Below, one piece after another: positions 37,715 to 57,043 of a DNA stretch of 64,000 nt (its first letter is position 1; each line of letters begins with the position of its first letter). The stretch spans positions 96,001 to 160,000 of the forward strand of contig CAVTRY010000018.1 of NCBI GenBank assembly GCA_963737265.1, written 5' to 3'. The notes under the pieces are model-generated. The model worked only from the letters and a program-made list of their open reading frames with translations. It was not told the origin of the DNA and ran no database searches. The translations under genes were made by a program, and so were the position numbers. The DNA comes from an uncultured delta proteobacterium (lineage in GTDB: Bacteria; Myxococcota_A; Polyangia; Fen-1088).

Positions 37715-37885
37715 AGAGAAGGAGCGTATCACGGCGCTGTTGCCGTCGCCGACATTGCCGCGAAGATCCCTATGTCGCCCACGCCCGCGCTCGCCGCGCC
37801 CGCGACGCCGGCATGCACGATCGTTCACGCCGGTGATACGATGCCTGTCGGCGGCCCACCCCAGGCCGCCATCCGAAGGAACCCG

Positions 37886-38924: not shown

Positions 38925-39964
38925 CAGACCTGATCGTTGGCCCTGACTACGCCGCCTGGCTGGTGGACCTGAAGTCGCGCATTCAGCGTGCGCGGACGCA
39001 GGCCGCCCTGGCCGTGAACCAAGAGCTGGTGCGTCTTTACCGCCACCTCGGCAGCGAGATCCTGGCCCGGCAGGACCGCCAAGGATGGGGCGCCAAGGTC
39101 ATCGATCGCCTGGCCGTGGACCTGCGCGCCGCCTTCCCCGACATGCGGGGCCTGTCCGCCTCGAACCTCAAATACATGAGGTTCTTCGCCGAGCTTTGCC
39201 CGGTGCTTCAAATTGGTCAGCAACCTGCTGACCAATTGCCCTGGTTCCACATCGTGACGCTTCTGACCAAGGTCACCGACCCTGACCAACGCGAATGGTA
39301 CGCCATCCGCGCCGTCGAACGTGCCTGGTCCCGCGCCGCCCTGCAAGCCAACATCAAGGCCCAGCTCCATCTGCGTGAAGGCGTGGCGGTGACTAATTTC
39401 GCCCAACGCCTGCCCGAGCCCCAAGTCCAGCTTGCCCAGGAGATTCTGAAAGATCCCTACCACTTCGATTTCCTGGGTCTTGGCGACGAGGCCCACGAAA
39501 GGGACATCGAGAGCGCCCTGGTCCGCCACATCACCCGCTTCCTGCTGGAGCTGGGGGCAGGGTTCGCCTTCGTCGGCCGCCAGCAGCGCATCGAAGTGAA
39601 CGGCGACGAGTTCTTCATCGACCTGCTCTTCTATCACGTACGCCTCAAGCGCTACGTGGTGGTGGAATTGAAGGCCGGAGCCTTCGCGCCCGAGCACGCG
39701 GGCCAACTGAATTTCTACCTGGCCGCCGTGGATGCGCAGCTCAAAGCCGCCGACGACAACCCCACCATCGGGCTTCTCCTGTGCAAGACCAAGAACCAAC
39801 TGGTCGCAGAGTACGCCCTTTCCGGCATCGCCAAGCCCATGGGCGTGGCCGAATACCAACTCCTGCGCGCCCTGCCCGAGCCATTGGACACCAGTCTGCC
39901 CACCGTCGAGGAATTGGAAGAAGAGCTGAACGCGGGCCTCACGGATGGAGGCAAAGATGAGTGA
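38921..39964 (+). CDS. YhcG/DUF1016 PD-(D/E)XK nuclease-domain protein
   Basis: WGAKVIDRLA, KDPYHFDFL, FFIDLLFYH, ELK, GQLNFY. Confidence 0.93.
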   Translation: MTDLIVGPDYAAWLVDLKSRIQRARTQAALAVNQELVRLYRHLGSEILARQDRQGWGAKVIDRLAVDLRAAFPDMRGLSASNLKYMRFFAELCPVLQIGQQPADQLPWFHIVTLLTKVTDPDQREWYAIRAVERAWSRAALQANIKAQLHLREGVAVTNFAQRLPEPQVQLAQEILKDPYHFDFLGLGDEAHERDIESALVRHITRFLLELGAGFAFVGRQQRIEVNGDEFFIDLLFYHVRLKRYVVVELKAGAFAPEHAGQLNFYLAAVDAQLKAADDNPTIGLLLCKTKNQLVAEYALSGIAKPMGVAEYQLLRALPEPLDTSLPTVEELEEELNAGLTDGGKDE

Positions 39965-39995: not shown

Positions 39996-40195
39996 GCGAG
40001 CTTTGCGCCGGACGCGCCAATGGTCGACCTCGGGTCTTCGACCTGCACGCGGCGATCGGCCCGGCTTGGGCAATGGGCAATTTTGGCACTACATTGCTTG
40101 TTCTTGGAATTTCCGTAGCACAACCGTTGCCAAACGTTATCGATTCGCCCGCGAGAACTTCTGTACGGTCACGGCCGACCAGTAAGGAGGTCCCC

Positions 40196-43138
40196 ATGTT
40201 GCTCGACCGTCGCAGATTCTCTCTATCGCAATTGCTCCCGCTCGGAGCCCTCACAACCCTTGCCTTCTTCGCGGGCTGTGGCCAGCACGAAGCCCCGGCC
40301 AACTCGGGTAGCGCCGACTTGACCGTCAAGACGCTGCTCAGCGCCGCTAACATCACCGGCGTAACCGCCACGATTTCCGGCTCTGCCCTCTCCACGCCCC
40401 GATCCGTCGCGCTCTCTTCGAGCACCACCGGGACCTGGGGCGCTCTCATCGGAGCGCTCCCAGCCGGCACCGGCTACGTCTTCACCGTCAGCGCCACCGA
40501 CGTAAATAGCGTCGCGCAGTACACCGGCGTCGCCTCCAACGTCACCATCGTCCAGAATGTGGTGACCAGTGTTGTCATCACTGCCCAGCAGGCCACGGCC
40601 CCGACGCCTTTCCAGAACTCGGTCCCCGTGATCGACGCGTTCGTCCTCTCGTCGAGCAACGTCGCTCCGGGCGCCACCATCGCCGCCACGGTCACGGCCC
40701 ACGATCCGGACGCTGGCGACACCCTCACTTACGCCTGGACGGTAAGTCCCAAGGGTAGTGTCTTCTCGGCCCCGACCGCCGTGACCACCAACTGGACCGC
40801 GCCCACCACGGCGGGCGCGTACACACTCACCATCGCCGTCACCGATAGCCACGGCGCGACCGCCTCGGCCTCGGTCGTGGTGAACGTCTCGACCAGCAAT
40901 GGCGTGGGCCAAGCCTCCCTTACCGTCAACCTCAACACCTGGCCGGTGGTGACCAACATGGTCGCGGCCCCGAGCTACCTTGTCCTTGGCCAGCCGACCA
41001 AGCTGACCGCGGTTGCCACCGATGCGGACGGCGACCCGCTGACCTACGCCTGGACCAGCACCTGCGCCGCCGGCACGTTCAGCGCCGCCATGGCCGCCGC
41101 CACCACCTTCACCTTGCCTGCTGGCGACACCGACGCTAGCTGCTCGATCAGCGTCGCCGTCAACGACGGCCGCGGCGGCTCGACCAGCGGTAAGGCCACA
41201 CTGCCCGTCGGCGCTCCTGCTGCGGTCAGCTCTCCGGTCTTCACGGGCAGCTCGCAGTCGCCCAACGTCGTGACCCCTGGCATGAGCGTGACCTTCCAGG
41301 TCACCGCCTCGGATCCGCAATCGAGCGCTCTCACCTTCACCTGGATTGCTCTCTCGGGCACCGTCTCGGGCCAGACCAACACCGCCAATTCGTCGCAGAT
41401 CACCTGGACTGCCCCCGCCGGCGCCTCGTCGAGCTCCACGGTATCCGCCGTGGCGACCGACGCCCTCGGCATGAGCGTTGAGCTCGACTTCGCAGTCACG
41501 GCTTGCGCGGCCGCATTGAAGTGGCCCTACCTCATCTACCCCGGCCAGAACTCGACGATGCAAGTGCTCTGGCAGGACAACAACGCCGGCGAGTCGAATA
41601 GCGTTCGCTGGGGCACCGACACGAGCTACGCCATGGGGAGCGCGGTCGCGCCCGAGTTCGGCGACAAGCAACACGCGTACACCATCACGGGCCTGCAGCC
41701 GGACACGAAATACTACTACCAGGTGACCGACACGGCCGTCACTGCCTGCGTCTACGGCCAGGGCTCGTTCACCACCGCGCCCGCGGACACCGCGACCTCC
41801 ATCCGCTTCATCGGCCAGGGCGACTCCCGCAGCCAGCCGTTCGCGCTTGACAACCTGATGCAGGCGCTCACCACGTTCTACGCCCAGCCCGGGAACGCGG
41901 ACTACCAGCGCTTTGCCATCCACAACGGCGACTGGGTGAGCACCGACGGCGAGAGCTACTGGACGAGCCAGTGGTTCGATCCCACCAAGAAGGACATCGT
42001 CGCGTACACGGCCAATACGCCCATCGACGGCGTCAAGGGCAACCACGACAACGCCTCGGGCTACAGCACCACCTTCCCGAAGTACTTCCCCTTCCCGTAT
42101 CCGGCCGCGACGCTCAAGGCTGGGACCGGGCCCGGGACCAGCATGCCTGCCACCTATAACAACCTCTACTGGTCTGTGGACTACGGTCCGGTCCACATCA
42201 CGTTCGTCGACGAGTACTCGGCCTTCACGCCTGGCTCGCAGCAGTACACCTGGCTCACGAACGACCTCGCCACCACCACGAAGCCTTGGAAGCTCCTCGT
42301 CTACCACGAGCCGGCGTACTCCGCGGGCTCGGACGGCGACAACACCTCCGCCCAAACCTACCTCGAGCCTCTCATCACCCAGTACAACGTGGACCTCGTC
42401 TTCGCCGGTCACAGCCACAACTACGCTCGCACGGGTGCCTATAACCTCACCCAGGCCCAGGGCGACCAGATTGCGCTCAACGTCCCGCACATCACCAGCG
42501 GCGGTGGTGGCGCGCCGGTCTATCAGCCCGACATGACCAACACCCACAGCAAGTACCCGCACGTCATCACGGCGTGGCCTGCCTTCGAGTTCGTGACCTT
42601 CGACGTGAAGCCGACCACTCTCACCATGACCGCCTACCAGGTCAACAACGTGAGCTTGACGGCTATCATGACGCCGGCCGCGCTGACCCTCTCGAAGATT
42701 GAGACCATCGTGCTCAATCACTTCAGCAACGTCACGCCGCAGTTTACCGCGACGACGAGCGCGTTCGTGCAGGATGCAACGACCGGCCACTATATGGGCA
42801 AACTGATCCTCACCAACACGGGTGCGGATGTTGCCGGAACCGTCGACGTCGTGATGGACGGCATCCTGAACCTCGCCGGGCTCGGTACGCCGGACAACGA
42901 GTACAGCACCACGAGCCCCCCGCTCGCCTCGATGATCGCCCAGAACACCGGATTGGCGACGACCGTCACGGTGGTCGGTGCGACCGGCTCTAACAACGGT
43001 GAGCCGATGATCCGTGCCACCAGCAGCGGCGTTTTGGCTGGCGGCCAGATCGTCGTCCCGCTGGAGCTCGACATGGGGACTGGTGGCATCGATCCGAACG
43101 CCACCAGCTTCTTCACCCCAGTGATCCTGAAGGAGTAA
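40196..43138 (+). CDS. lipoprotein metallophosphoesterase (purple-acid-phosphatase-like fold) with Ig/PKD-like repeats
   Basis: AAGGAGG RBS; DRRRF plus FAGC signal; repeated DPDxGDxLTYxW; GLQPDTKYYY; GDS, GDWV, GNHD, YHEP, GHSH. Confidence 0.88.
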   Translation: MLLDRRRFSLSQLLPLGALTTLAFFAGCGQHEAPANSGSADLTVKTLLSAANITGVTATISGSALSTPRSVALSSSTTGTWGALIGALPAGTGYVFTVSATDVNSVAQYTGVASNVTIVQNVVTSVVITAQQATAPTPFQNSVPVIDAFVLSSSNVAPGATIAATVTAHDPDAGDTLTYAWTVSPKGSVFSAPTAVTTNWTAPTTAGAYTLTIAVTDSHGATASASVVVNVSTSNGVGQASLTVNLNTWPVVTNMVAAPSYLVLGQPTKLTAVATDADGDPLTYAWTSTCAAGTFSAAMAAATTFTLPAGDTDASCSISVAVNDGRGGSTSGKATLPVGAPAAVSSPVFTGSSQSPNVVTPGMSVTFQVTASDPQSSALTFTWIALSGTVSGQTNTANSSQITWTAPAGASSSSTVSAVATDALGMSVELDFAVTACAAALKWPYLIYPGQNSTMQVLWQDNNAGESNSVRWGTDTSYAMGSAVAPEFGDKQHAYTITGLQPDTKYYYQVTDTAVTACVYGQGSFTTAPADTATSIRFIGQGDSRSQPFALDNLMQALTTFYAQPGNADYQRFAIHNGDWVSTDGESYWTSQWFDPTKKDIVAYTANTPIDGVKGNHDNASGYSTTFPKYFPFPYPAATLKAGTGPGTSMPATYNNLYWSVDYGPVHITFVDEYSAFTPGSQQYTWLTNDLATTTKPWKLLVYHEPAYSAGSDGDNTSAQTYLEPLITQYNVDLVFAGHSHNYARTGAYNLTQAQGDQIALNVPHITSGGGGAPVYQPDMTNTHSKYPHVITAWPAFEFVTFDVKPTTLTMTAYQVNNVSLTAIMTPAALTLSKIETIVLNHFSNVTPQFTATTSAFVQDATTGHYMGKLILTNTGADVAGTVDVVMDGILNLAGLGTPDNEYSTTSPPLASMIAQNTGLATTVTVVGATGSNNGEPMIRATSSGVLAGGQIVVPLELDMGTGGIDPNATSFFTPVILKE

Positions 43139-43326: not shown

Positions 43327-44058
43327 ATGAAGATAACGATCTGCACATCCCTGGCCCTCCATCTCCTGCTGCTTTCCGCGGCCGATAAGATGGGAAGCGC
43401 CTCGGCCCCCGCCAAACCGACGGCGATCGAGGTCGATCTGGGCAAACCCTCGATGATCGAAGTTGAGCTGGGGGGCGGCCGCAAAGCCGTGCAGCCGGTC
43501 CGCGACTGCGGGAAGAGTGTGCACCTGAGACGAAAGCAGCCGGCGCACCGCCTGACCAAGACGGCCCGTCTGGAAGCAAGGCCGGCTCCGCCCTTGCCCG
43601 CGCCGCCATCTTCTGTTGCAGAGACAGCAGTGAAGGAGGCCGCGGCACCTGTCTCCTCTCCCATATCTGAGTTGGTGTCCGGAGAGTCAACCGCGACGGT
43701 CGACAACGTCATCCGCTCCGCCGGGGTAGCACCGTCTGCCGGTTCCGAAAGCGGGAAGCCGGCCAGCCCTGGGACAAGCGAAGGGAACGGCATGCTTCCC
43801 TTCGTGATCAGCGGCCCCCCGCCTGCCTACCCGCAAGATGCCCGTTCCAAGGGGTTCACCGGAAAGGTGAAGGTGAAGGTCTTGATATCCGAGCAGGGGA
43901 CTGTCGAGGATACGGTCATTGCCCAGAGCTCCGGGTATGCAAGCCTCGACGAGGCGGCAAGGCTTGCTTTGCGCCACTGGCACTTCAGTCCGGCGTACAG
44001 AGGTGGCCATGCAGTTGCCGCCTGGGTCGTCGTGCCGGTGACGTTCAAGCTGGCGTGA
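43327..44058 (+). CDS. tonB: TonB family energy transducer
   Basis: SLALH TM motif, PAYPQDAR..G, SSGYASLDEAA, VPVTFKL. Confidence 0.88.
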   Translation: MKITICTSLALHLLLLSAADKMGSASAPAKPTAIEVDLGKPSMIEVELGGGRKAVQPVRDCGKSVHLRRKQPAHRLTKTARLEARPAPPLPAPPSSVAETAVKEAAAPVSSPISELVSGESTATVDNVIRSAGVAPSAGSESGKPASPGTSEGNGMLPFVISGPPPAYPQDARSKGFTGKVKVKVLISEQGTVEDTVIAQSSGYASLDEAARLALRHWHFSPAYRGGHAVAAWVVVPVTFKLA

Positions 44059-44206
44059 CCGGCCCTCTCAATCGACGCAAGATCCATCCCAACAGAAAGG
44101 TAGTTTTGAAATGATAGTGTCATCCAGGCCAACGCGGGTAGGGGGAACCAGAGTCTCGATTCTCGTTGCGCTGCTGAGCCTAGGCCAAGCAGTCTCGGTT
44201 GCATCT

Positions 44207-44446
44207 GCGGAAACCGAGCCTGCAGCGGCCTCTCCGCCGCCAAGTGATGCGCCTGCAACGGAGTCCGCGGAAACCTCGCCGGCAGCGACCTCTCCGCCGC
44301 CAAGTGATGCGCCTGCAACGGAGTCCGCGAAAACCTCGCCTGCAGCGGCCTCTTCGCCGCCAAGTGAGGTGCCTGCAACGGAATCCGCCAAACCCCTGCC
44401 TCCAGCGCCCTCCCCGCCGTCAGGTGATGCGCCTGCAACGGAGCTC
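44207..44446 (+). repeat. four ~60-bp in-frame tandem repeats
   Basis: Encode SPPPSDAPATESAxT units. Confidence 0.9.
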
Positions 44447-45320
44447 GCGGAGGTTTTGGTGACGGACAAGAAAGAGACCACGCCGGCGCCCAGGCCAGGA
44501 AGCGCGGAGAGCGGATATCTGAGCACCTCCGCAATGCTCGGAACACTCGGCAATGCAAAGCTCCTGGATACCCCATTTACAGTCACGTCTTTTCCACAAC
44601 CACAACCTTCGGCATGTCGAATCCGGGCTATTCTCCCGACCCGAACGTCACGATTTCCAAAAGCCCTCCCTATCACACAACCCAGAAGGCGTTACGCCAG
44701 TCCACGCTGCTGACCGATCAGCTTGCCCTGGGTCAGAAGTGGTCCCTGCTTGCAGGACTCTCCTACGTGAGCATCGCTGACAAGCAGTATTCAAACACGA
44801 CCGGCGCGTTGACATCGGATTACCACCAAGGAAGAGTTACTCCGGCCGCGGCGCTCATGTTCAAACCCGTTCCAAAGGTGACCGCCTATGTGTCGTATAT
44901 CCAGGCTCTGGAAGAAGGTCCCATCGCGCCCAGCACGGCCGCCAATGCCGGTGAAATCCTCAAACCCTTCCTGAGCGATCAGGTGGAGATGGGGCTGAAG
45001 ACGCTCATCGGCGGGATGAACCTGAATGCCGCTGTTTACCGTATTGAAAGGGCCAATGCATACACCGACCCCGACACCAGCATTGTCACCGAGGACGGGC
45101 GGGAGGTTCACATGGGCGGAGAACTCTCCTTCTCCGGCAAAGTCACCGACAATTTCACCCTGCTGGGAGGATTCTCGATCCTGAGAGCGACGATTGAAAA
45201 GGCCACCGATCCGGGGCTTGAGGACAAGTCCCCGCAGGCCGTCCCGAGAACCCTGGCGAGATTGTATGGAGAATACGCCCTGCCCGTCGTTCCCGGCCTT
45301 ACCGTGACAGGGGGCATGTC

Positions 45321-45509
45321 CAGGGCCATCGCATCATCCTACATCGACGCAGGATCCATCAGAGTCTCGGCCATTTCTGGAAGGTTTTCCCCTGGGGTCG
45401 GTGCGCGCGCCGGTGTGCAGGCAGGTTCGGCAGCGCGCACGGGCGCGGAGACCGGCATAACTATCGGCATCTCCGCAAGATCACTTACAATTTAGATGCG
45501 TTGGCCCTG
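45321..45509. mobile_element. 189-bp ISAs1-type miniature element (MITE)
   Basis: Inverted ends CAGGGCCATCGCATC / GATGCGTTGGCCCTG; 10-bp target duplication GGGGCATGTC at 45311-45320 and 45510-45519. Confidence 0.88.
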
Positions 45510-45769
45510 GGGGCATGTCCTACACAGGCGAAGAATGGGTCAACGATGCGAATACTCTCTCGATTCCCTATGTGCTCACCGGAGACTTGGGATTGCGCTA
45601 CCAGAGGAAAGTGATGGGGAAGGACACCGCGTTGCGGTTCTTGGTGAACAACATCGCCGGTGAAAACTATTGGACCACCAAGGGAGGCGGGATGCTGTAT
45701 CTCGGAAGTCCACGCATCATTGCCATGTCGGCTACAGTGAATCTCTAGCCTGAAAGCGGGAGGAATGGG

Positions 45770-47238
45770 ATGCGCATGCGCCTTGTTTTGGCAGTGGTGG
45801 CTCTGCTGGCCTCCGTCTGGTTCCTGAGTGACGGCAGACAGGTTTCCGCGGCGGACAGAGGCAAGGCCGCCGCCGGGAAGAGGCTCGTTCTGTCGCTGCA
45901 CGCCAGCGCCCACAATCGCGAGGACGTCTTCGTGTCGGCACTGATCGATGCGGGGGCAGCTCGCAGCGTCTACGTCGAATACGCCGACAAGACTCTCGGC
46001 CGCGCGCAACTGCTCGAACCAGGCATGCTGAACGCCGCGGCACGCGGTTCCGGGAAGCGGGAATTGCATTTCGTGGCGCCGAAGATGGCAAAGGGAGAAA
46101 CGGCCAGGGTTGTCGCCCTGCTGTCGGAACAACCCATCGAAGGACGGACGTATGTCTGGAACGGCGAGCCTCGCCAGAGCCGTCGCCTGTCCTGCGGGCA
46201 GTGCCATCAGGGGTCGACCATACCGACGGCCGAGCAATTGCGACAGGAAGGAGAAATGCTTGAAGAAGACGGGCAAAGTTCCGCCGCTGGATACGTCCCG
46301 CATCCTGCCGACCTCCAAAGGAGAAGATTCCCGATGGCACGAAAAGCTGGGCAGGTATCAGTCCTCGGCCTGCTGGGAATGCCATGCCCGCCACATGGTC
46401 GAGTACGAGTTCGGCCAATCGCTCGAACAGAGATTTTCCCTGGGCACCCGACCCGGCGAAGCTTGGCGAAGCCCCGATCGTCCGCAGCGTCTTCCACACC
46501 GTCTTTCACGTGCTCGATGGGCGAAGGGCTACGCACCCGCTGGCGGGCGAGGACGCTGGCGGCGATAGTCCAGGCGCGTGGAAGATCCAGTACGGCTTCG
46601 AACGAGCAAGTGTGGGTGCCGCGCGCTCGACCGATGTGCTCCAGCAACACGTACGGACACTGTCCGAAGAAGCGGGCAAGTTCATCGGCCGGCACAATAT
46701 TCGGATTGATTGGATCGGCCATTTGGCCGATAAACGCGTGACGATAGCCCGCGAGGAGCGGCAGGTGACGGTGAAGGATTACCGGGCCCGCAACCATAGC
46801 ATTGCGATGTGGATCGATTTCGCTTCCACGCTGCACCCGGCTGAAGGCCCGGTCAAACTGGACGGCGCCGCCGGTGCGGCGGGATTCCGCTTCGTTCCTT
46901 CCCTGGACGCCGGCACGGTGCCCGAGAAGCGTGAATCGGCCGCATGGCGAGCGATCACGTTCGTCTCCGAGCGATCGACGTACACGGCCGTCTGCATTAG
47001 TCAATCGGGCAATCCGCCCCCGCCCAAGCAATCGGCGCAACCGGCCGGACCTTCGGGAGCGGCGGCTCGCACTGGCGCGCCGCCGGAGATCGGATTCCGC
47101 TTCTCGGCGGAATGCACTGCCCAGAAACCGCTGCAGGTCCACTACCGGCTGTGGATCCAGGGAGGCCGGATGCCAACCGAGGAGATCGCGTCACTGGCGA
47201 ACGATCTTCTGGAACCGATCCGAATCGAAGTCGAGTAA
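45770..47238 (+). CDS. secreted DUF6807-like protein with two CxxCH motifs (frameshifted)
   Basis: Signal peptide; CGQCH and CWECH in successive frames; C-terminal IDFASTL..VKLDG..GFRF. Confidence 0.5.
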
Positions 47239-47605: not shown

Positions 47606-47617
47606 CTGAAAGTGGCC

Positions 47618-48769
47618 ATGCGTACCTTCTTCATCCTCCTATCAATCCTCTGCGTGCTGTCGCCAGCGTCCCGCGCTGCACCTGCTGCGGCGGACGATCC
47701 GGCCGTGACCGCCCTGAAGCAGGCAGCGCAGCAGGCCTATCTCGAAAAGCGCTTTGACCAGGCGATCGCCCTCGACCTCGAAATCGCGCAACACCCCGAG
47801 AGCCATGCGCGCCGCTACGCCGTGCAGATGTTGGGGACGCTGTACGAAGACAACGTCGTCGATGTCGCCGCCGCTATTCGCTGGGATCGGGAATTCCTGG
47901 AGAAGTACGCCGACGTGCGCCAGGTAGCCTTCTACCGGCAGAAGATCGCCACGCTCGAGCAGGTGCTTCCGCAGAAGGACGCCTTCGCAAGTTACCAGAG
48001 GATTCGCTTCGCCAACCAGGGCGACGAGGTGCTGGTGAAGCAGCTCGAGGCCCTGCTGAAAGAGCATCCCGATTTTCTCCTCAAGGACAAGATCCAGGCA
48101 GAGCTGGGCTACGCCTACGCCCGCATGGACAAGCACAAGCAGAGTTATCTCGCGTTTCAGGCGCTGTCACAGAGCGGAAAGCCAATGTCGGCCGAGCACA
48201 TGAAGGCCTACCAGGCGGCCGCCCTGCATTTCAACGAGACCTCGAGCTGGGGCTTCGTCGTGTTGGGCGTCGTGCTGGGGCTGTGGGGCGTGGTGCTCCT
48301 CGGCAAGCCGTGGAGGCGGATCACCCGACGCGCGCTCTGGAAGCTTCTCGCCATTGCTTTGGCGTGGGTGGCGCTGAACGTGGCCCGCATGCCAGGCTTC
48401 TACACCATCGAGACAACGGGCTATCCGGTCGTCATTCCCGACACAGTCGTCTACACGGGCATCGCGCTCAACCTGACCGTTATCGTGTGGCTCTTCCTAT
48501 TGAGACGTGGATCGTTCTGGGAGCGCTGGCCGAAGATCGTGCGCCTCGTCGCCAGCCCGATTCTCGTGGTCGTGATGACCGCGTCCGTCCTCTATCTGCT
48601 CGTGATCCGGCAGCCGAACGGGCCGGAGATCGTCGACGTCTTCCCTATGGTGTACCATCGCTGGGTCGAGGATATGAGACGTCCTGCCGGTCCGGTCGTG
48701 CCCAGCGCCGAAGCGCACGAAATGAAAGCCGCGGGCGTGACCGGCGACCGTCCCGACCATGCGCATTGA
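47618..48769 (+). CDS. TPR-like periplasmic domain plus ~4 TM membrane protein
   Basis: Signal peptide, helical repeats, hydrophobic C-terminal segments. Confidence 0.7.
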   Translation: MRTFFILLSILCVLSPASRAAPAAADDPAVTALKQAAQQAYLEKRFDQAIALDLEIAQHPESHARRYAVQMLGTLYEDNVVDVAAAIRWDREFLEKYADVRQVAFYRQKIATLEQVLPQKDAFASYQRIRFANQGDEVLVKQLEALLKEHPDFLLKDKIQAELGYAYARMDKHKQSYLAFQALSQSGKPMSAEHMKAYQAAALHFNETSSWGFVVLGVVLGLWGVVLLGKPWRRITRRALWKLLAIALAWVALNVARMPGFYTIETTGYPVVIPDTVVYTGIALNLTVIVWLFLLRRGSFWERWPKIVRLVASPILVVVMTASVLYLLVIRQPNGPEIVDVFPMVYHRWVEDMRRPAGPVVPSAEAHEMKAAGVTGDRPDHAH

Positions 48770-48788
48770 GGAGTAATAAGGAGCAACG

Positions 48789-49007
48789 ATGACGGGAAAA
48801 ATCCTGAAAGTGAAGACCGGCTACAACCCGAACTCGAGCAGCATCGGGGTCGACATGGTCGCCTTCTTCACCATTGGTGCGGGGATGACGGTGCTCTTCA
48901 ACCTTATCGCGACCATCATCGATGGCATCCAGGCCAAGCAGCGTGCGCGACCGGGCGAGGACAAGCAAGGCACGACGCAAGCGACGACGGAGGCGAAGCC
49001 GGCATGA
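48789..49007 (+). CDS. 72-aa GYNPNSSS-motif peptide, candidate radical SAM substrate
   Basis: AAGGAG RBS; ATGA overlap with the rSAM gene. Confidence 0.75.
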   Translation: MTGKILKVKTGYNPNSSSIGVDMVAFFTIGAGMTVLFNLIATIIDGIQAKQRARPGEDKQGTTQATTEAKPA

Positions 49008-50158
49008 GCACGCTCCGCCATCGCTTCGAATCCTTTGGCGGCATCCTGGCCCTGGAAGATCCGCCGATGCTCGTGCACGTGGACCGGGACTTCATGCGCA
49101 GCCTTGGCCATTCCGCCTGCTCGGCCTGGGAAGAGTCGGAGACAGGGCTTCTCAGCGCGCCGCTCGAAGTTCACCTCTCGGTGACGAACGCCTGTTCGCA
49201 GGGCTGCGGCCACTGCTACATGGACTCGGGGCGGAACGATGCCGGCGAACTGTCATCGGCGGAGCTCCGGCGAGCCATCGACCTGCTCGCGGACATGGGC
49301 GTGTTCCACGTTGCGCTCGGGGGCGGAGAGGCGCTGGAGCGGCCCGACCTTTTCGATCTCGCCGCGCATGTGCGGGCACGCGGCATGGTCCCCAATTTGA
49401 CCACCAATGGCGCTCTTCTGACCCGGGAGACCGCCGAGCGATGCCGTGTCTTCGGTCAGGTCAACGTCAGCATCGACTCCCTCGACGGGGGCGCGCAGGC
49501 CGGCCCGGCCGCGCGGCTAGCCGCGGTGGATCTCCTGCGGGAAGCAGGGATCCGCGTCGGCATCAATTGCGTGGTGACGCGAGAGGGTCTCGATGGGCTG
49601 GCGAACCTCATTGCGTTCGCGAAGGAGCGAGGGCTCGTCGATATGGAGCTTCTCCGGCTCAAGCCCTCAGGGCGTGGAAAGAAGGACTACTTCGAGCGGC
49701 GACTGACGCGGGCTCAGAACGAGAAGTTTTTTCCGTTCATCCGGGACCTGTCCTTGTTGCACGGCAGCTTCCCGGTGAAGATCGATTGCTCGTTCGTTCC
49801 GATGTTCTGCTGGCACCGACCGGACAAGAGCCTCATGGAGCAATTCTCGGTCTACGGGTGCGAGGCCGGTAATGTCCTCGTCGGGGTGCGTTCCGACGGC
49901 AGGTTTGCCGGCTGCTCCTTTCTGTCCGGCGAGGAATCCATCTTCGAATTGCCGGGGCTTTGGCGGACGTCGGAGCACCTGACCCGCCTGCGCGGCTGGA
50001 TCGAGCGCGCGCCCGAACCGTGCCGATCCTGCGACTATTTGGACATCTGCAAGGGGGGCTGCCGCGCGGTGGCCGCATTCGTCGTCGGCGATGCCTTCGC
50101 TCCCGATCCCGAGTGTCCGTTCGCGGTGACGATGCGCGAGCGCGGCGTGGGAGCGTGA
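49004..50158 (+). CDS. radical SAM/SPASM domain protein (PqqE/MftC-like)
   Basis: CSQGCGHC, GGGE, TTNG; SPASM CEAG..CSF..CRSCDYLDICKGGC..DPEC. Confidence 0.93.
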   Translation: MSTLRHRFESFGGILALEDPPMLVHVDRDFMRSLGHSACSAWEESETGLLSAPLEVHLSVTNACSQGCGHCYMDSGRNDAGELSSAELRRAIDLLADMGVFHVALGGGEALERPDLFDLAAHVRARGMVPNLTTNGALLTRETAERCRVFGQVNVSIDSLDGGAQAGPAARLAAVDLLREAGIRVGINCVVTREGLDGLANLIAFAKERGLVDMELLRLKPSGRGKKDYFERRLTRAQNEKFFPFIRDLSLLHGSFPVKIDCSFVPMFCWHRPDKSLMEQFSVYGCEAGNVLVGVRSDGRFAGCSFLSGEESIFELPGLWRTSEHLTRLRGWIERAPEPCRSCDYLDICKGGCRAVAAFVVGDAFAPDPECPFAVTMRERGVGA

Positions 50159-51439
50159 GCGTGCGCAGACCACGGGTTGCGGCCGTTGCGGTCTTGCTGG
50201 CGGTGCTGCTGCCGACAGCAGGCGCACCTGCATTCGCGCACGATTTGCCCATGGGAGGATCGCGCTGGAGCTTCGGTCGCAATCGGATCGTCGCCAACAT
50301 CGATCTCGGCCCCTCGCTGTTGCAGGCCATCAAGGGTATGAAGGAGTTGCGCGATCCAGTCGATCTAGTCGAGGGCCTGTCGGACGAGCAGATGCACCAA
50401 GTGGTGACCGAGATCCTCCAGCCGTATCTCGATGAGAAGCTGTCGGTCACCGAGGACGGCAAGGCGTACCCGGTGAAGGTCGATAGGCTGGTGAATAGCG
50501 GGAACGTCACCACGATCTGGATCTCGGTCGAGGGGATCCCACTCGACCTGGGGAGGCCATTCACCATCGATTACAGGCTGCTCTTCGACGAGACCGAGAA
50601 CGCGCACATCAACCTCGCCTACGGATACCTGTCCGAGGCCACCGGAGACGCTCTGAAGTCGGTGTTCGACTTCTCGCCACCCGCGATGCAATACACGTTC
50701 GAGTCGTCGGCGCACGCCTGGACGGTGATCCCCTCGGGCGCCGCCAAGATCGGGGCCAGGGCGGGCATGCAGGCCACCGCGACGCCAAGACCGGCCGTGG
50801 CCAAACCTGCCGTGGGCGTCGTGGCGGCGGTGCCGGGGGCACCCGTGTCGCCTCGCTCGATGTTGGAGGGAGATGCTCGCCAATGTAGGCCGTTTCGTCC
50901 TGCTTGGCATCGAGCACATCCTGACTGGGTACGACCACATCGCGTTCCTCGTGGCGCTTGTGGTCGTCGCCCCGTCGTTCAAAGCCGTCCTGCCCATCAT
51001 CACCGCTTTCACGGCAGCCCACAGCATCACACTGCTCCTGTCGGCCCTGCGTGTGGTCAGCCTTGACTCCAGGCTGGTCGAGTCGGCCATCGCTGTTTCC
51101 ATCTGCTACGTCGCCGTCGAGAACCTGTTTCGGAAGAAGGCCACGCGCCGCTGGCTCGTGGCTTTCTGCTTCGGGCTCGTCCACGGCTTCGGGTTCGCGA
51201 GCGTCCTGCAGAACCTGATCGTCGGGAGGGCGAATCTCGTCAGCTCGGTGGTCTCGTTCAACGTCGGCGTGGAGCTCGGGCAGCTCATGATCTTCGCCGC
51301 CCTGCTCCCATTGCTGCGCTTCCTCGCCGCGCTCATCCAGCCCCGGAAGATCACCATCGCCGCCTCGGCTGCCATCGGCCTTTTGGGGTTCATCTGGGTC
51401 CTTGAGCGGGGCTTCGACTTGAGGCTCCTGCGGCTGTGA
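50155..51439 (+). CDS. HupE/UreJ-family membrane protein with N-terminal periplasmic domain (frameshift near 50870)
   Basis: AFAHD; GIEHILTGYDHIAF, TAFTAAHSITL, FGLVHGFGFA, FNVGVELGQ; GTGA overlap. Confidence 0.88.
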
Positions 51440-51518
51440 TTACTGACCCGATTCTGTTACAGAGTCGTCGCTGATAAGTTGCAAATCGGTTCTTCAATGT
51501 GTGGTTACTGTCCGCGCG

Positions 51519-51809
51519 ATGAAAACCTTCCCCATCCATCGATCCGAGAAGCACTCATCATCCGCACACGAGACGACCCGGTGGAAGGTGGCAGTTCTGT
51601 TGGTGGGGTTCGTGTCGATCGGATGGGGCGTTGGCTGCGGTCTTGGCAGCTACGACGACCTGGGCGAGCCAGTCCCGGGACAAGGATGGCCTTGGGTCTG
51701 TCCCGAGGGAGGCGACCCGAGCTTGGACGGCGGTTGCCCACCTGCGGCGAGCATGGATGCGGCAACCGCGGACGACGCTCCAGACGCGGCCCCCGAAGGC
51801 GCGTCGTGA
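51519..51809 (+). CDS. small putative lipoprotein
   Basis: Hydrophobic stretch ending GVGC; two further Cys; stop overlaps the receptor GTG. Confidence 0.5.
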   Translation: MKTFPIHRSEKHSSSAHETTRWKVAVLLVGFVSIGWGVGCGLGSYDDLGEPVPGQGWPWVCPEGGDPSLDGGCPPAASMDAATADDAPDAAPEGAS

Positions 51810-54160
51810 GAGGATACCGCGACGTCAGCGGTCGCACGAATGGCTCATTTCATTCGATAGTGCGATTCGGAGTGCGATTCGGAGTAGCTGTCGGATTGTG
51901 CTTGGCCGCCTGCTGGTCCCGCCCAGCCGCAGCCCAGGACGGCGGGCAAGAACCGGCGCCCGAGCCGTTGGCAGGAAGCCCGGAGGTCGGCCATCCCGAC
52001 TTACTGCCAGCTCCAGCTGTCACGCAAGAGCCGGAGAGCCCCGCAGCCCGGAAGAAGGCCGCGGCGTCGATGGTGGTTTCGCCCGAGCCGGCGGTTTCGC
52101 CTGAGCCGGCCCCCGATGTCACGGTGCTGGGCGCGAGGGAGAAGACGACCGGAACGAGTGAATCCGTGCTGTCGCGACAGACGATTGCATCCCTGCCCGG
52201 GGGTGACGCTCAACCGCTTGCCTACGTGCTGGCGACTCAGCCCGGGTTCGTCGCTGACACGTTCGGTTTCGGGCTCCACGTGCGCGGCGCGGATGGCGGC
52301 TTGCTCTACGTGATCGACGGCATTCCACTTTTGGCCGCCCCACTCGGGGAATGGGGCGCCACGATGGGCTTTATCCCGACAAGGCTGGTGCAGAACCTTC
52401 GCGTCCTGACCGGCGGCTTCCCGGCGGAATTCGGTTCTGGCCTGGGTGCTGTGATCGACATAACCACGCGCCACGCTCTGGGTGGCCCATCTGGGGAAGC
52501 ACAAGCCTCGTACGGGACCTATGGCACGACCAATTACGCCCTCAATTATGCCCAGGAGATCGGAAGGCTAAGCCTCTTCGTCGCCGGCGATGTCCAGAAC
52601 ACCAACCGCGGGTTCGACCCGCCGTCGGTGACACCCATCCTTCACGACAGCATGACATCGGGCAGCGGCTTCATGCGCCTGGACTACCAGCTTCGCGAGA
52701 CCGACCACATCGAGCTCGTCACGACCTTCAATCAGAGTCGGATTCAGATCCCGATCGACCCGACGCTCTTGCCTCTATCCCAGGCCCCAGCGGGAGCGGT
52801 CCGGGGGCCCGACGTGTATGGTAACGAGCCTCCGCCCTTCGTGCCCTACGATGCAAACCCCGTCGAGACCGAACGTAATGTCTTCGCGGCGGTTTCCTAC
52901 CAGCATGCCGGTGCTGGGGGCACGTTGCAGGTTGCCCCCTTTTTCCGCGAAGCCTACGGAAAGCTCACCTGCGATCCCGCCGGATCGTTGGGGCCGACCG
53001 CGGATCCCGGCTCTTCCTGCAGCGATGTCCGCAGGGATGTCCTTCACGGAGGCGGGCTGGCCTCGCTCACATGGGCACAAGGCGAGCGGCACACCTGGAA
53101 GGCAGGCCTGCTTCTCGATGCGGCCCGCAGCAACGTGGATTACACAGCCTACTTCCGCGGCGATGCCGCTCCTTCCGGCGGCGCGGATCCGGCGCAGACC
53201 CTGTCAGGCAGCGACATCACCAACGTGCTCAACGCGGGGGCATTCCTGCAAGACCAAATCCGGCTCGGAAAGTGGCAAATCCTTGGTGGCGCCAGGCTCG
53301 ACATCGAGAGCGCGTCGTTCCTCCACAGCGACGAGCCATCGTTGTTGCTCCTCGGGCCAAGCGCGCGGCTGGGACTTAGTTACGCCGTCACGACGAGCCT
53401 CACGCTGCACGGGTTTGCCGGATACTTGTGGCAACCACCGAGCACGATAGATGCGCCCGTCGCGGCTCGCATCCTCGTTCCTTCCCTCGCCGGGCAGTCT
53501 CTTCCCGTCGATATCAAGGCGGAAAAGGACTGGTCCGCGGAGCTGGGCCTCACCGAGCGTCTACTGCGCGGTTTGACCTTGGACATCACCGCCTGGGGCC
53601 GCATCGCCAAAGATCAACTCGACCGCGTGAACGTAGGCACCACCAACCTCGTCGCCAGCTACAATTTCGAACGCGGGCGCGCCGCCGGGGCCGAAGCCTC
53701 GTGCAGGCTCAGCGGCGGCGCCAATGTCGACGGTTTCGCGAACTTGGGATGGCAGCTCGCGCAGGGCTCGGGCATCAGCTCCGAAAAATTCCTGTTCAGT
53801 CCGGACGAGATCGCTGACAAGAGCTGGGTGATGCTCGATCACGTGCAGACGTGGACCGCAAACACCGGGATCGATCTTCACGATGACCCCGCGAGCACGC
53901 ACGTGTCGGCTCTGCTGAACTATGGCAGCGGGATGCGTACCGGCGCCGACAGCGACAAGACGGTGCCGTCGCATGTGATTGTCGATCTCACGATTCGTCA
54001 CCGTTTCGATATCTTCTCGCACCTGCACCCCGAGATAGCCATCGACGTTCTCAACTTGTTCGACCAAGTCTACGCCTATCGCATTGGCACCGGCTACGTC
54101 GGCAGCGCCTACGGTCCGCTGCGGCGAGTCTTCGTGCGGCTCGCGCTTCCGTTTTCTTGA
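51806..54160 (+). CDS. TonB-dependent receptor
   Basis: LHVRG, IDGIP, TGGFPAEFG plug; NLFD; terminal RVFVRLALPFS. Confidence 0.88.
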   Translation: MRGYRDVSGRTNGSFHSIVRFGVRFGVAVGLCLAACWSRPAAAQDGGQEPAPEPLAGSPEVGHPDLLPAPAVTQEPESPAARKKAAASMVVSPEPAVSPEPAPDVTVLGAREKTTGTSESVLSRQTIASLPGGDAQPLAYVLATQPGFVADTFGFGLHVRGADGGLLYVIDGIPLLAAPLGEWGATMGFIPTRLVQNLRVLTGGFPAEFGSGLGAVIDITTRHALGGPSGEAQASYGTYGTTNYALNYAQEIGRLSLFVAGDVQNTNRGFDPPSVTPILHDSMTSGSGFMRLDYQLRETDHIELVTTFNQSRIQIPIDPTLLPLSQAPAGAVRGPDVYGNEPPPFVPYDANPVETERNVFAAVSYQHAGAGGTLQVAPFFREAYGKLTCDPAGSLGPTADPGSSCSDVRRDVLHGGGLASLTWAQGERHTWKAGLLLDAARSNVDYTAYFRGDAAPSGGADPAQTLSGSDITNVLNAGAFLQDQIRLGKWQILGGARLDIESASFLHSDEPSLLLLGPSARLGLSYAVTTSLTLHGFAGYLWQPPSTIDAPVAARILVPSLAGQSLPVDIKAEKDWSAELGLTERLLRGLTLDITAWGRIAKDQLDRVNVGTTNLVASYNFERGRAAGAEASCRLSGGANVDGFANLGWQLAQGSGISSEKFLFSPDEIADKSWVMLDHVQTWTANTGIDLHDDPASTHVSALLNYGSGMRTGADSDKTVPSHVIVDLTIRHRFDIFSHLHPEIAIDVLNLFDQVYAYRIGTGYVGSAYGPLRRVFVRLALPFS

Positions 54161-54529
54161 GCGGATTCCCGATTCGTGCTGGACGTGAACTACCTGCAAG
54201 CTGCGCGAGTTCGTTGGTTGATGCGCTGAAACGACATGGCATTGTGGTGGCCGAAATCGGCAAGGTACGCTTAAGGCGGATTTCATTGCCTACGAGGGGC
54301 GCGTTTGATCACGGGGCGCGAGTTCCGAACACTCGTGGCTAACGGCTGCACTCGCGCGCCCAATTCTGCGCGCGCTGCCGCGGCGTTTGACGGATGATTT
54401 CACGGCTCGCCAGGTGAAAGGCTGGGGTGGAGCCGGCGAAATGCTCCAACCGTCACCAAGTTGTGACGGCGCGACCTTCTCCGCGGATCCAGGAAAGACC
54501 TCGAACATTCTTCTCTACCGGAGGTCTTC

Positions 54530-57043
54530 ATGAAAACCACCGTTCCACTTTCAAGCCTGCTCCTCCCTTTCACCTTGGTCTGCGGATGCACGGAAAGTGC
54601 GCCGCTCGAACCGACCAGCAAGCCGGCCAAGGCTCTGCTTGAAGAAAACCCACGGTCGCCCGCTTCAGACGAAAACCACGAACGCCTCGATCACATCTTC
54701 TACATCATGATGGAAAACCACGGCACGAGCCAAATCATCGGCAACACTGCTGACGCGCCGACTATCAATGCACTGGCCAGCCAATATGGCCTGCTGACCA
54801 ATTACTTCGGCGTGACCCACCCCAGCCTGCCCAATTACCTCGCGGCAGTCTCGGGAGACTTTCAGGGTATCTGGGACGACTGCAAGGCGGGCTCCGATGT
54901 CACCTGCGCGCCCGAGGAATTCGTGCCCGACTCGGGCGACGCCACTTCCACGGTTCTGCTGACGCCTGCGGAAATCGCCAGCAGCGGCGCCAAACCGCAC
55001 CTCTTCGACGGGGCTAACCTGGTGGATCAGCTCGAGGCGAAGCGGCTGACTTGGAAGGCTTACATGCAGTCCATCCCGGGCGTTGGCTCGACGGTGGAAT
55101 ACGCGCCGGTGGACGTGGTCGCCGGCGTCTCCACGCCACGCAAGCTCTACGCCCAGAAGCACGATCCCTTCATGTACTTTTCGGATATCCGCAGCGATCC
55201 GAAGCGAATGCAGCGGATCGTCCCGTTCGACGGTTTCGCCCACGACCTCAAGAAGGACGACATTCCCAACTTTGTCTGGATCAGTCCCGACCAGTGCCAC
55301 GACATGCATGGCGTCTCCGCGGCCAATGCCGCCGCGGTTGGCATTCCAGACTGCGCGTCGCCCGATTCCGGATTGGATCACAAGGTCATTGCGCTCGGCG
55401 ATGCCTTCCTGAAGACGACGGTGGAAGCCATCATGCATTCGCGCGCGTGGCGCGAAAATTCGGCCATCGTCATCGCCTGGGACGAGAACGATTACACCGG
55501 GACCCAGGGCTGCTGCTCGGCGCCCCTGGGCGCGGGCGGCGATGTTCTTGGCGGCGGTCATGCGCCCGCGCTCGTCATCACCTCGCGCAACGCCCGCCAT
55601 CAGAGCGTGGACACGGCGTTCAACCATTACTCGTTGCTCGGGACCATCCAACGCCTGTGGGGGCTCGACTGCTTGGGCGCCACCTGCGGCTTCGACGATT
55701 CGTCGCTGCTGCTGGGGCTCTTCGATCCCGATGATGCTCGACACGTGCCACACGCGCACGAGGTGCTGGCACTGAGCCGCGTCCGATACGACGGCAACAC
55801 CTTCGACAATACACAAGATTACCCCCTCATCTTCACCGACCCGACAGTGACGGGCATCCAGGGCAGCATCTTCGTCGACATCGTGCCCGCCCTACCGGAC
55901 GCCTCGCCCCTGCGCACGCTTTCGCTCACGGGCATCACGACCAGCTTCAGCTCGAAATCTGAAGGCGCCTTGATGCTTTCGCAGGACCGACGGTTCCTGA
56001 CCTATATGGGCTACGCCGGCGCGGTGGGCGCGGGCGGAGTTTCCAACTCCTACGACACGGCGGCGAACCTGGCCGGCAACACCAATCCGCTCTTCGATCG
56101 CGAGGTCGCGCTCATTGCCGCCGATGGGTCGGTATCCCTGACCGCGGAATCCAATGCCTACAGCGGGGACAATCCGCGAGCGGTCGTCTCGGCCGATGGA
56201 ACGCAGTTCTACATGGCCGGCAATTCCGATTCGACCATTGCCAAAGATAGCACCGGTCCAGGAACCACCATTGGCGCTCGTTACGGCACGCCCGGCTCAG
56301 CGGTTTCCATCGAGCTTGGCGTTTACTTGGCAACAGACCGGCCCGATGAGTCCGCAAAACAACACGTCAAGGATAGTAATTTCCGAGCCATTGGGATCTT
56401 CGGCGGCAACCTGTACGTCGCCAAGGGAAGTGGCGGTAACGGCGACGACGGCGTCTTCCAAGTGCGGAACGGTACGGGCAATGGCCTCCCCCTCGGCACC
56501 GGCAATACCATCGTGCCGCTGTTCAGCGCTCCGGCGACGGATCCGGTCAGCGGGGCACCGTCGCCCTACACGCCGTTCGGATTCTGGTTCGCCAACCCGA
56601 CCACGCTGTATGTCGCGGACGAGGGCTACGCGAACGTGGATTCGAACGGCAACCTCATTCCCGATCCATTGGCCGGCCTGGAAAAGTGGAGCCTGGTCGG
56701 TGGCATCTGGCAGCTCGCCTACGCGCTCACCGCCGGACTCGATCTCTATCAACCGAAGATCGTCCCCGACTATCCGGTCGCGACCTACACGACGGGCCTG
56801 CGCAACATGACCGGCAAGGTGAACGAGGATGGCACGGTGACCATCTACGCGGTTACGTCCCAGTTCAGCTCGATCTCCGCCGGCGAGCCGGATCCCACCA
56901 GGTTGGTCACTATCCGCGATCGGCTGTCGGCAGCATCCGCACCTGCCGCAAATACCGACGACGCACTGGAGGCGTTCGTCACGTTGCAGGGATCCAAGGC
57001 GGGCGAGGTCATCCGGGGCGTCGCGTTCGTGCCCGGCAAATAG
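54530..57043 (+). CDS. lipoprotein phosphoesterase (acid phosphatase/PLC family) fused to a beta-rich C-terminal domain
   Basis: GGAGG RBS, VCGC lipobox, IMMENHG, THPSLPNY, KHDPF, HDMHG, WDE, NHYSLL. Confidence 0.85.
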   Translation: MKTTVPLSSLLLPFTLVCGCTESAPLEPTSKPAKALLEENPRSPASDENHERLDHIFYIMMENHGTSQIIGNTADAPTINALASQYGLLTNYFGVTHPSLPNYLAAVSGDFQGIWDDCKAGSDVTCAPEEFVPDSGDATSTVLLTPAEIASSGAKPHLFDGANLVDQLEAKRLTWKAYMQSIPGVGSTVEYAPVDVVAGVSTPRKLYAQKHDPFMYFSDIRSDPKRMQRIVPFDGFAHDLKKDDIPNFVWISPDQCHDMHGVSAANAAAVGIPDCASPDSGLDHKVIALGDAFLKTTVEAIMHSRAWRENSAIVIAWDENDYTGTQGCCSAPLGAGGDVLGGGHAPALVITSRNARHQSVDTAFNHYSLLGTIQRLWGLDCLGATCGFDDSSLLLGLFDPDDARHVPHAHEVLALSRVRYDGNTFDNTQDYPLIFTDPTVTGIQGSIFVDIVPALPDASPLRTLSLTGITTSFSSKSEGALMLSQDRRFLTYMGYAGAVGAGGVSNSYDTAANLAGNTNPLFDREVALIAADGSVSLTAESNAYSGDNPRAVVSADGTQFYMAGNSDSTIAKDSTGPGTTIGARYGTPGSAVSIELGVYLATDRPDESAKQHVKDSNFRAIGIFGGNLYVAKGSGGNGDDGVFQVRNGTGNGLPLGTGNTIVPLFSAPATDPVSGAPSPYTPFGFWFANPTTLYVADEGYANVDSNGNLIPDPLAGLEKWSLVGGIWQLAYALTAGLDLYQPKIVPDYPVATYTTGLRNMTGKVNEDGTVTIYAVTSQFSSISAGEPDPTRLVTIRDRLSAASAPAANTDDALEAFVTLQGSKAGEVIRGVAFVPGK

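Follow-up and report, generated by a model that had tools for sequence, protein, structure and literature searches.

Radical S-adenosylmethionine (rSAM) enzymes that carry a SPASM region and have small peptides as partners have repeatedly been a source of new chemistry and cofactors, as in the cases of pyrroloquinoline quinone (PQQ), mycofactocin, streptide and the sactipeptides. MftC of the mycofactocin system acts on an adjacent small ribosomal peptide, MftA, which is modified at its C-terminal Val-Tyr, whereas anSME oxidises a Ser or Cys of its target motif to formylglycine. Another rSAM/SPASM enzyme, QhpD, modifies the small protein QhpC in the cytoplasm. QhpC is Cys-rich, thioether cross-linked and exported with dedicated partners, and it is a permanent subunit of an extracytoplasmic enzyme complex. 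Here we describe a locus in a 64,000 nt stretch of DNA (termed the window; positions 96,001 to 160,000 of contig CAVTRY010000018.1) from an uncultured delta proteobacterium of the class Polyangia, in which a 72-amino acid (aa) membrane protein with a nearly invariant N-terminal motif is encoded directly upstream of an rSAM/SPASM enzyme. The two constitute a conserved pair. An earlier interpretation of the same DNA, made from its letters alone (the sequence-only reading), had proposed an uncharacterised peptide-modification system here, and we state below how its claims fared. The features at the centre of the locus are as follows:

47612-48769 (GTG start), + strand: tetratricopeptide repeat (TPR)-like membrane protein, 385 aa; from the list of open reading frames (ORFs), with no Pfam or NCBIfam match for this copy
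48789-49007, + strand: small membrane protein, 72 aa, presumed substrate of the rSAM enzyme; AAGGAG Shine-Dalgarno sequence, ATGA overlap and homologues
48795-48815, + strand: residues 3-9 of the small protein (GKILKVK), a leader-like strand; predicted pairing with rSAM strand 21-27
48819-48848, + strand: residues 11-20 of the small protein (GYNPNSSSIG), the invariant core motif; conservation, with residue 16 as the proposed modification site
49004-50158, + strand: rSAM/SPASM enzyme, 384 aa; three-stranded sheet of 50 residues at the N terminus; PF04055, E 1.4e-17

These genes are part of a closely packed group of four, all on the + strand, that extends from 47612 to 51439. The strong ribosome-binding site and the coupling of the small ORF to the rSAM gene that had been claimed for this locus are both present: AAGGAG lies 5 nt upstream of the start codon, and the peptide stop codon overlaps the rSAM ATG (49004) in the sequence ATGA. 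The TPR-like gene had been started at an ATG at 47618; the GTG start given above lies at 47612. The small protein opens with MTGKILKVKTGYNPNSSSIG, continues with a hydrophobic stretch and ends in a polar tail. Public sequencing runs were compared as Logan contigs (shares of at most 0.32; most holders are relatives, with 88-99% likeness; the habitat labels peat, soil and wetland derive mostly from small shares), and a metatranscriptome contig of one relative (X20; 352 nt, with 26 other letters and 12 gaps) covers 48776-49136. This contig runs from the peptide gene into the rSAM gene and gives a weak hint of co-transcription; DNA can occur in such libraries. A scan of the window for promoters and terminators gave no signal above shuffles.

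A word search recovered 68 homologues of the small protein. This type of search is biased towards the motif, and we therefore also gathered peptides by way of rSAM loci and with a profile. In an alignment of 46 word-search homologues, KTGYNPNSSSIG is invariant, and the hydrophobic segment and tail are variable. When 1.5 kb flanks were inspected, the small ORF was present in 17 of 30 rSAM loci of the window's class, and motif variants from rSAM-retrieved loci include VKWGLNPNSSSLG, IKWGMNPNSSSLG, VKLGFNPNSSSLG, VRLGYNANSSSLA and VKQGYNPNSSSIG. The profile, run against 1.84 billion representatives, returned 590 clusters (50% identity) at E<=0.001 and 386 at E<=1e-10. Given the 68 word-search homologues and the 590 profile clusters, the small ORF is real and far beyond chance.

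Residue conservation was counted on 147 newly returned representatives among the best 150 of the profile matches. Eight residues (G3, G11, N13, P14, N15, S16, S17 and S18) are identical in 146 of the 147, position 9 is Lys in 145 and Arg in one, and L6 is almost invariant. Position 12, the Tyr of YNPNSSS to which the sequence-only reading had given weight, is Tyr in 115 of 146 representatives, and Leu (15), Met (10), Phe (5) or Val (1) in the others, so that claim falls. A hydrophobic stretch of 24-34 residues is kept in all 146 representatives measured. The profile matches listed are 54-126 aa long, with one exception of 331 aa (P0289), which the profile matches at residues 256-309 and which may be a fusion or an over-called ORF. 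The peptide is single copy in the window's own genome. Pfam and NCBIfam gave no family for it, even with the threshold relaxed to E<=10, and the ESM Atlas gave no usable match for it.

Conservation of the motif beside rSAM homologues, on which the earlier proposal depended, is borne out by two surveys. Among 45 genome loci that were retrieved by the peptide pattern alone, independently of the rSAM gene, 38 carry an rSAM homologue (at least 45% identity). Five of the seven misses (L053, L058, L060, L062 and L063) lie on short or cut contigs, one of which (L062) stops about 430 nt past the peptide. In the second survey, the same 301 genomes of the window's class were searched with a profile for the rSAM and then for the peptide. 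The rSAM profile matched 109 genomes and the peptide profile 92; both were found in 91 genomes, the rSAM only in 18, the peptide only in one and neither in 191. The lone peptide-only genome is 60% complete. Twelve of the 18 rSAM-only genomes hold weaker rSAM matches only (E 1e-66 to 1e-107; families f7, f19 and f31), and we read these as belonging to a sister clade, a reading checked by locus for six of the twelve. In the rSAM-only genome G011 the gene lies at the start of a contig. When the peptide was not beside the rSAM gene, it was located elsewhere in four of five genomes tested, and in two further cases it lies about 5 kb from the rSAM gene.

Nearly all genomes of some families of the class have the rSAM (44/44, 21/23 and 14/15 genomes), and in the first of these (f15) the peptide is found in 43 of 44 genomes. 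The records that hold peptide loci are labelled as delta proteobacteria/Myxococcales, Syntrophobacter, Geobacter, Nitrospirota and Acidobacteriota types (Korobacteraceae, Terriglobales), and also as Planctomycetota, Fibrobacterota, Raymondbacteria and Cytophagia. One carrier among these loci, Geomesophilobacter sediminis Red875 (L051), is cultivated. Thus, a ribosomal peptide is genetically coupled to, and conserved with, a modifying enzyme, as is typical of RiPPs (peptides made on the ribosome and modified after translation).

The enzyme belongs to the radical SAM superfamily by its match to PF04055 (64.9 bits vs a cutoff of 29.5). As the sequence-only reading had noted, it carries a full set of SPASM cysteines: C64, C68 and C71 of the CxxxCxxC motif are invariant in 27 homologues, as are eight more (C262, C286, C304, C340, C343, C349, C353 and C371). 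The spacing C340-x2-C343-x5-C349-x3-C353 is that of the SPASM motif CX2CX5CX3C and places the enzyme in the SPASM subfamily. It aligns to SPASM family models as far as residue 374; Pfam's SPASM model gave no match to it at E<=0.01. The eight additional cysteines would provide two fully ligated auxiliary clusters suited to electron removal. Conserved residues near the N terminus are R7, E9, F11, G12, G13, P20, L23 and D27.

The best NCBIfam match is MftC (TIGR03962; 150.6 bits vs a cutoff of 265, E 6.2e-44, residues 50-374), and the scores for PqqE (TIGR02109; 95.4 vs 381 bits) and GeoRSP (116.3 vs 400) also stay below their cutoffs; no NCBIfam equivalog cutoff is reached. By sequence, the nearest solved chains are those of PqqE, SkfB, SuiB, MoaA and anSME. 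An AlphaFold2 model of the enzyme (pLDDT 86.3, pTM 0.87) has N-terminal strands at residues 5-9, 12-18 and 21-27, together with short helices, ahead of the barrel. Foldseek ranks SuiB first (5v1s/5v1t, TMq 0.73-0.74, E 6e-18), then SkfB, PqqE and anSME (TMq 0.62-0.64 for the last).

We modelled the enzyme together with peptide residues 1-34, SAM and three 4Fe-4S clusters, using the rSAM alignment and three runs. The ipSAE scores were 0.88, 0.87 and 0.88, vs 0.02 for the best control; contacts agreed by at least 97% between runs, and the partner pLDDT was at least 70. The contacts of lowest error join peptide residues 4-9 to rSAM residues 22-27, 30 and 281-282, and in the model they correspond to the addition of a beta-strand to the N-terminal sheet. 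This predicted complex supports the earlier suggestion that the rSAM N terminus is a peptide-binding element. The sheet may work like a minimal RiPP recognition element (RRE), although homology to such elements lacks profile support. Peptide residues 1-28 contact the enzyme in the model, barrel positions included. Further interface residues of the enzyme (54-59, 72, 102-107, 129-133, 150-154, 184-188, 213-220, 257-263 and 304-306) can be read as barrel and auxiliary-cluster regions, with the core motif predicted to lie inside the barrel. The predicted interface speaks for binding, not turnover.

Enzymes of the sister clade share 37-41% identity with the window's enzyme. Six sister-type loci were fetched (L109-L114), and in four of these (L109, L110, L113 and L114) a small ORF lies beside the rSAM gene. 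It reads VL(S/A)(V/I)HFGRSANCSSIGSVVDxLF with a helix after, and the motif in the small membrane proteins is GRSANCSS(I/V)GSVVDVLF. A search with the sister small ORF returned 52 homologues, with Cys16 in all 52 and N15 in 51; all 51 of those with the motif have Arg or His at position 12. In an ungapped comparison, G3, L6, G11, N15, S17, S18, I/V19 and G20 are common to both families, whose shared core is G-x-x-(P/A)-N-(S/C)-S-S-(I/L/V/M)-G. The change from Ser16 to Cys16 is the sole systematic change inside this core that tracks the enzyme clade. Tyr12 was considered as an essential site and rejected, since position 12 varies across both families. In locus L109 one strand carries, in this order, a phosphoesterase like purple acid phosphatase (PAP), a TPR-like membrane protein, the small protein (7870-8064, - strand) and two small membrane ORFs, and the rSAM gene is convergent. 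The PAP-like phosphoesterase adjoins the sister system in both L109 and L112.

The recurrent gene set comprises a TPR-membrane protein, the micropeptide and the rSAM enzyme. The TPR-like protein has a signal peptide-like N terminus, a helical domain, about four C-terminal transmembrane helices and a conserved KPW motif. ORF clustering, a single-linkage procedure that also drew in spurious overlapping ORFs, places its homologues beside the peptide in 37 of 46 loci, and tblastn does so in 30 of 45; a TPR-membrane protein recurs beside the peptide in every clade examined. The label TPR, first given from the letters alone, stands in part. The window's own copy has no TPR match in Pfam, but homologues carry TPR Pfam matches, the ESM Atlas returns only generic TPR clusters, and a TPR protein with four transmembrane helices of the f15 type aligns to the TPR-membrane alignment with an hhalign probability of 95.4%. 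In three f15 loci (L116, L117 and L120), a TPR protein with C-terminal transmembrane helices precedes the peptide, with a sigma-54 response regulator upstream of that TPR gene. All ten loci examined from the class's other families (L097, L099, L100, L103 and L116-L121) have a Kinase-PPPase gene (PF03618) beside the rSAM gene, which is probably lineage synteny.

How does this pair compare with the described ones? Like MftC, the enzyme would act on a small ribosomal peptide encoded beside its own gene, and MftC is its best family match. However, the score is far under the MftC cutoff, no separate PqqD-like MftB is present here, and the adjacent peptide belongs to an unrelated family with an N-terminal motif, a dispensable Tyr and a membrane helix. 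PqqE, a SPASM enzyme that likewise modifies a peptide and depends on an element to bind it, has the solved structure nearest in sequence (6c8v, E 5.5e-25) and is also a Foldseek match, but the PqqE model is far from its cutoff, a PqqD gene is missing and the peptide has no conserved Glu/Tyr pair. SuiB shares the order of N-terminal peptide-binding domain, barrel and SPASM region; its sequence identity to our enzyme is only 18%, and the N-terminal element here has about 50 residues, whereas a full RRE is larger. Furthermore, the core of the present substrate has no Lys/Trp pair such as that of SuiA, and the substrate is membrane-anchored.

That residue 16 alternates between Ser and Cys across the two families is reminiscent of the Ser and Cys targets of anSME, a SPASM enzyme with fully Cys-ligated auxiliary clusters. 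In contrast to anSME, whose sequence matches only distantly (E 1.7e-11, no single stretch passing by itself) and which the 25 best NCBIfam families listed do not include, the present enzyme has as its target a 72-aa membrane protein with the core N-(S/C)-S-S-Phi-G (Phi, hydrophobic) and not a sulfatase; the sulfatase motif (C/S)-x-(P/A)-x-R is absent here as that motif is commonly given. The enzyme is therefore not a member of the MftC, PqqE or anSME families. For a product that would remain a membrane-tethered subunit, the closest analogy is QhpD/QhpC, compared here by general description only, although peptides of the main family lack Cys, those of the sister family have a single one, and a hydrophobic helix is present. 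By analogy, the pair possibly works as a RiPP or cofactor maturation pair (such as MftC/MftA, PqqE/PqqA or SuiB/SuiA), perhaps with anSME-like chemistry, and it differs from known pairs in its membrane-anchored substrate, its N-terminal core and its lack of processing machinery.

Other genes of the window that recur near the pair are listed below:

50155-50872, + strand: N-terminal part of a HupE_UreJ_2 fusion gene (signal peptide and unknown periplasmic domain); from the ORF and the intact ORF of relatives
50873-51439, + strand: HupE_UreJ_2 membrane domain, a clade-specific accessory; PF13795, E 1.3e-48
40073-43138, + strand: PAP-like metallophosphoesterase lipoprotein, 1021 aa, a frequent accessory; PKD/Ig domains, Pur_ac_phosph_N and Metallophos

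The stop codon of the rSAM gene (50156-50158) overlaps the downstream GTG (50155) in the sequence GTGA, as had been claimed for a HupE/UreJ gene. The coupling is real, and the domain at 50873-51439 belongs to HupE_UreJ_2 (165 bits vs a cutoff of 24.5), but the gene as assembled lies in two frames. One extra base near 50862 distinguishes it from three related genomes (L021, L023 and L026), and in a fourth (L030) the fusion is a single 463-aa ORF (8044-9435). A near-identical public contig (X1, depth 2.8) and a relative's contig (X2) also lack one base, at 50863 and 50861, respectively. Because these genomes and contigs are without the extra base, the frame split is probably an assembly indel.

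Of the 45 peptide loci, 27 (all of the nearer clade) have a HupE_UreJ_2 fusion and none of L052-L065 does, which weakens the possible metal permease link that had been suggested. Over a wider span (17 kb, or whatever the contig allowed if shorter), ten loci from other families of the class gave no tblastn match to HupE or to the phosphoesterase. HupE was thus rejected as a core partner. The phosphoesterase, which the sequence-only reading had overlooked, co-occurs more widely than HupE (family F1, 39 of 46 loci by ORF clustering, vs 27 of 45); it was rejected as a universal partner on account of the same ten wider loci. The window's copy has the lipobox FFAGC and the motifs GNHD and GHSH, and the tyrosine of GDxxY is absent. 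In L021 the phosphoesterase lies directly upstream of the TPR gene. In the window the two are parted by an insert of about 4.4 kb, missing in L021, that contains TonB (43327-44058), a fragmented TonB-dependent receptor and a DUF6807 gene. The receptor is broken across frames (ORFs 44111-44713, 44614-45495 and 45515-45748, with a beta-barrel family match in 44614-45495, the sole ORF scanned), and the DUF6807-like gene spans two overlapping frames (45770-46741 and 46384-47238). These broken frames (44111-47238) may be further indel errors or pseudogenes.

Operons of the Planctomycetota type (L050-L065) contain, in order, a TPR protein, an unknown 276-aa protein, the peptide, a thioredoxin-fold protein like ResA/TlpA, a metallophosphoesterase with a glutaredoxin-like stretch, a second paralogous peptide, a TPR-membrane protein, the rSAM enzyme and a DUF2950-like protein. 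Two micropeptide paralogues, of the types VKTGYNPNSSS(I/V)G(S/T)xIP and VKQGYNPNSSS(M/I)GS(I/V)(I/V)F, are present in L050, L052, L054-L058, L063 and L065. Among the neighbours in the examined loci, no peptidase or exporter family recurs, in agreement with the earlier remark that neither is present here, and there is no match to the PqqD or MftB family of the kind that accompanies MftC. In one myxobacterial locus an MFS transporter gene follows the peptide gene. Farther upstream in the window, 37265-39964 holds an HsdM_N ORF and a YhcG/DUF1016 PDDEXK nuclease gene (restriction-modification-like). Downstream, 51479-57043 encodes a TonB-dependent receptor (Plug and barrel; an 893-aa ORF whose long N terminus is probably over-called) and an 837-aa protein with a Phosphoesterase domain (PF04185, phospholipase C/acid phosphatase type); a TonB-dependent receptor is also downstream in the related loci L024 and L025.

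The sequence-only reading knew of no characterised product, and no described family was found to cover this system. Beyond the absence of a Pfam or NCBIfam family for the peptide and of an NCBIfam equivalog for the enzyme, no literature description was found. A literature search did not find the motif 'NPNSSS' (supplementary tables of rSAM/RiPP atlases were outside its coverage), nor any paper that joins radical SAM and SPASM with HupE or with purple acid phosphatase. On rSAM/SPASM precursor peptides with a transmembrane helix, it returned only a general RiPP review (PMC10849128), as far as the accessible part of that text goes.

These observations make it probable, in our assessment, that the locus belongs to an uncharacterised, widespread module in which a small single-pass membrane protein is the substrate of an rSAM/SPASM enzyme and is usually accompanied by a TPR-membrane protein. 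In the mechanism we propose, the basic strand G-K/R-I/V-L-x-V/I-K (residues 3-9) would dock as an extra beta-strand on the N-terminal sheet of the enzyme. Docking would thread the invariant core G-Phi-N-P-N-S-S-S-Phi-G (residues 11-20) into the barrel that holds SAM and the [4Fe-4S] cluster, where the 5'-deoxyadenosyl radical would take a hydrogen within these residues and the two fully Cys-ligated auxiliary clusters would remove electrons. Residue 16 appears the likeliest modification site, because it is Ser in the main family and Cys in the sister family and tracks the enzyme clade. The chemistry may be an oxidation by two electrons, of the formylglycine type, or else the core may be cross-linked internally through a (thio)ether or C-C bond. 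A membrane-bound product is likely because the helix is kept in every member and neither a peptidase nor an exporter is a recurrent neighbour. The product would stay tethered through this helix and act with the TPR-membrane protein, with an exported PAP-like metallophosphoesterase as co-actor in many lineages and a thioredoxin-like or HupE_UreJ_2 protein in some. Such links to the phosphoesterase, to thiol-disulfide proteins and to HupE are suggested by gene context.

Several points weigh against this interpretation. The support for it consists throughout of genomics and predicted structures. One peptide locus (L061) has no rSAM gene within its downstream flank of about 6 kb, and five genomes with a strong rSAM match, in which the gene is clear of any contig cut, gave no detected peptide (G134, G210, G217 and G241, 73-88% complete; G154, 91% complete). 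For residues 1-62 of the enzyme, Pfam and NCBIfam gave no profile match (with E allowed up to 5 and 10), PqqD and MftB included; no profile therefore places the N terminus among PqqD-like proteins or RREs, and the likeness to MftB that had been proposed for it is not confirmed as homology. The score of the complex may partly reflect likeness to solved rSAM-peptide complexes, as SuiB-SuiA, anSME-peptide and ChlB-ChlA complexes appear among the Foldseek matches. In addition, the mark against which this score was read, which 58 of 80 solved complexes and 2 of 110 mismatched pairs reached, was calibrated without ligands and on alignments other than that of this job. The model output does not say which peptide residue adjoins SAM, and the modification site is thus something that we infer. 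In the one sister enzyme read (that of L109) all eight auxiliary-cluster cysteines are kept, which fits anSME-like oxidation but leaves room for other chemistry. Finally, both flanks of the helix are basic (mean net charge +3.9 on the N-terminal and +1.6 on the C-terminal side), so the topology is not settled by charge.

Basic flanks around a hydrophobic helix of 24-34 residues would also suit a role as anchor or regulatory subunit that brings the soluble rSAM enzyme to the membrane, where the enzyme would act on something else, such as a lipid, the TPR protein or the precursor of the exported phosphoesterase. The lack of a conserved protease or exporter, the membrane or exported nature of all other partners and an interface that speaks for binding rather than turnover are in keeping with such a role. 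We nevertheless regard it as improbable. An anchor has no need of nine essentially invariant residues with a polar Asn/Ser run, recruitment leaves the clade-correlated switch from Ser16 to Cys16 unexplained, the motif reaches residues that line the SAM site in the model, and the closest folds all modify peptides or proteins.

The small protein might instead be a classical precursor of the PqqA or MftA kind, from which an unlinked protease excises the core to yield a diffusible product such as a metallophore. MftC and PqqE as best profile matches, the TonB, TonB-dependent receptor and HupE genes nearby in the window, and the MFS transporter that follows the peptide gene in the one myxobacterial locus are all compatible with this proposal. 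It seems to us distinctly improbable, however, because neither peptidase nor exporter recurs across clades, HupE is limited to part of the family, the TonB genes belong to the insert that L021 lacks, and the hydrophobic helix is kept in 146 of 146 representatives. We also judge that a single-copy peptide that is near-universal in f15 points more to a cellular function than to a secondary metabolite. Adjacency of the genes in the window and the majority of Tyr at position 12 (115 of 146) could suggest a modification centred on that Tyr with a product tied to a HupE/UreJ metal permease. This has very little chance of being correct, since 31 of the 146 representatives have Leu, Met, Phe or Val in place of Tyr12, all 51 sister sequences with the motif have Arg or His there, and both L052-L065 and the ten myxobacterial loci of wider span lack HupE.

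Within the substrate reading that we favour, a more specific proposal can be put forward tentatively, as one that we think could be right but is rather unlikely in its full form. The small proteins would be a hitherto unrecognised class of rSAM-matured membrane microproteins in which Ser16 or Cys16 of an invariant N-terminal loop is made into a reactive or cross-linked group (e.g. formylglycine) in the cytoplasm, after which the protein would serve as a permanent, cofactor-like subunit with the TPR partner and often with an exported binuclear metallophosphoesterase.

The system is a good lead, being widespread and near-universal in some families, with no family model or paper found for it. The substrate resembles a membrane protein instead of a secreted peptide, its short invariant core with a natural Ser/Cys alternation provides a testable hypothesis, and the cultivated carrier offers genetics. 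If the specific proposal is true, the microprotein would represent a new kind of cofactor or subunit system derived from a protein, as opposed to a natural product.

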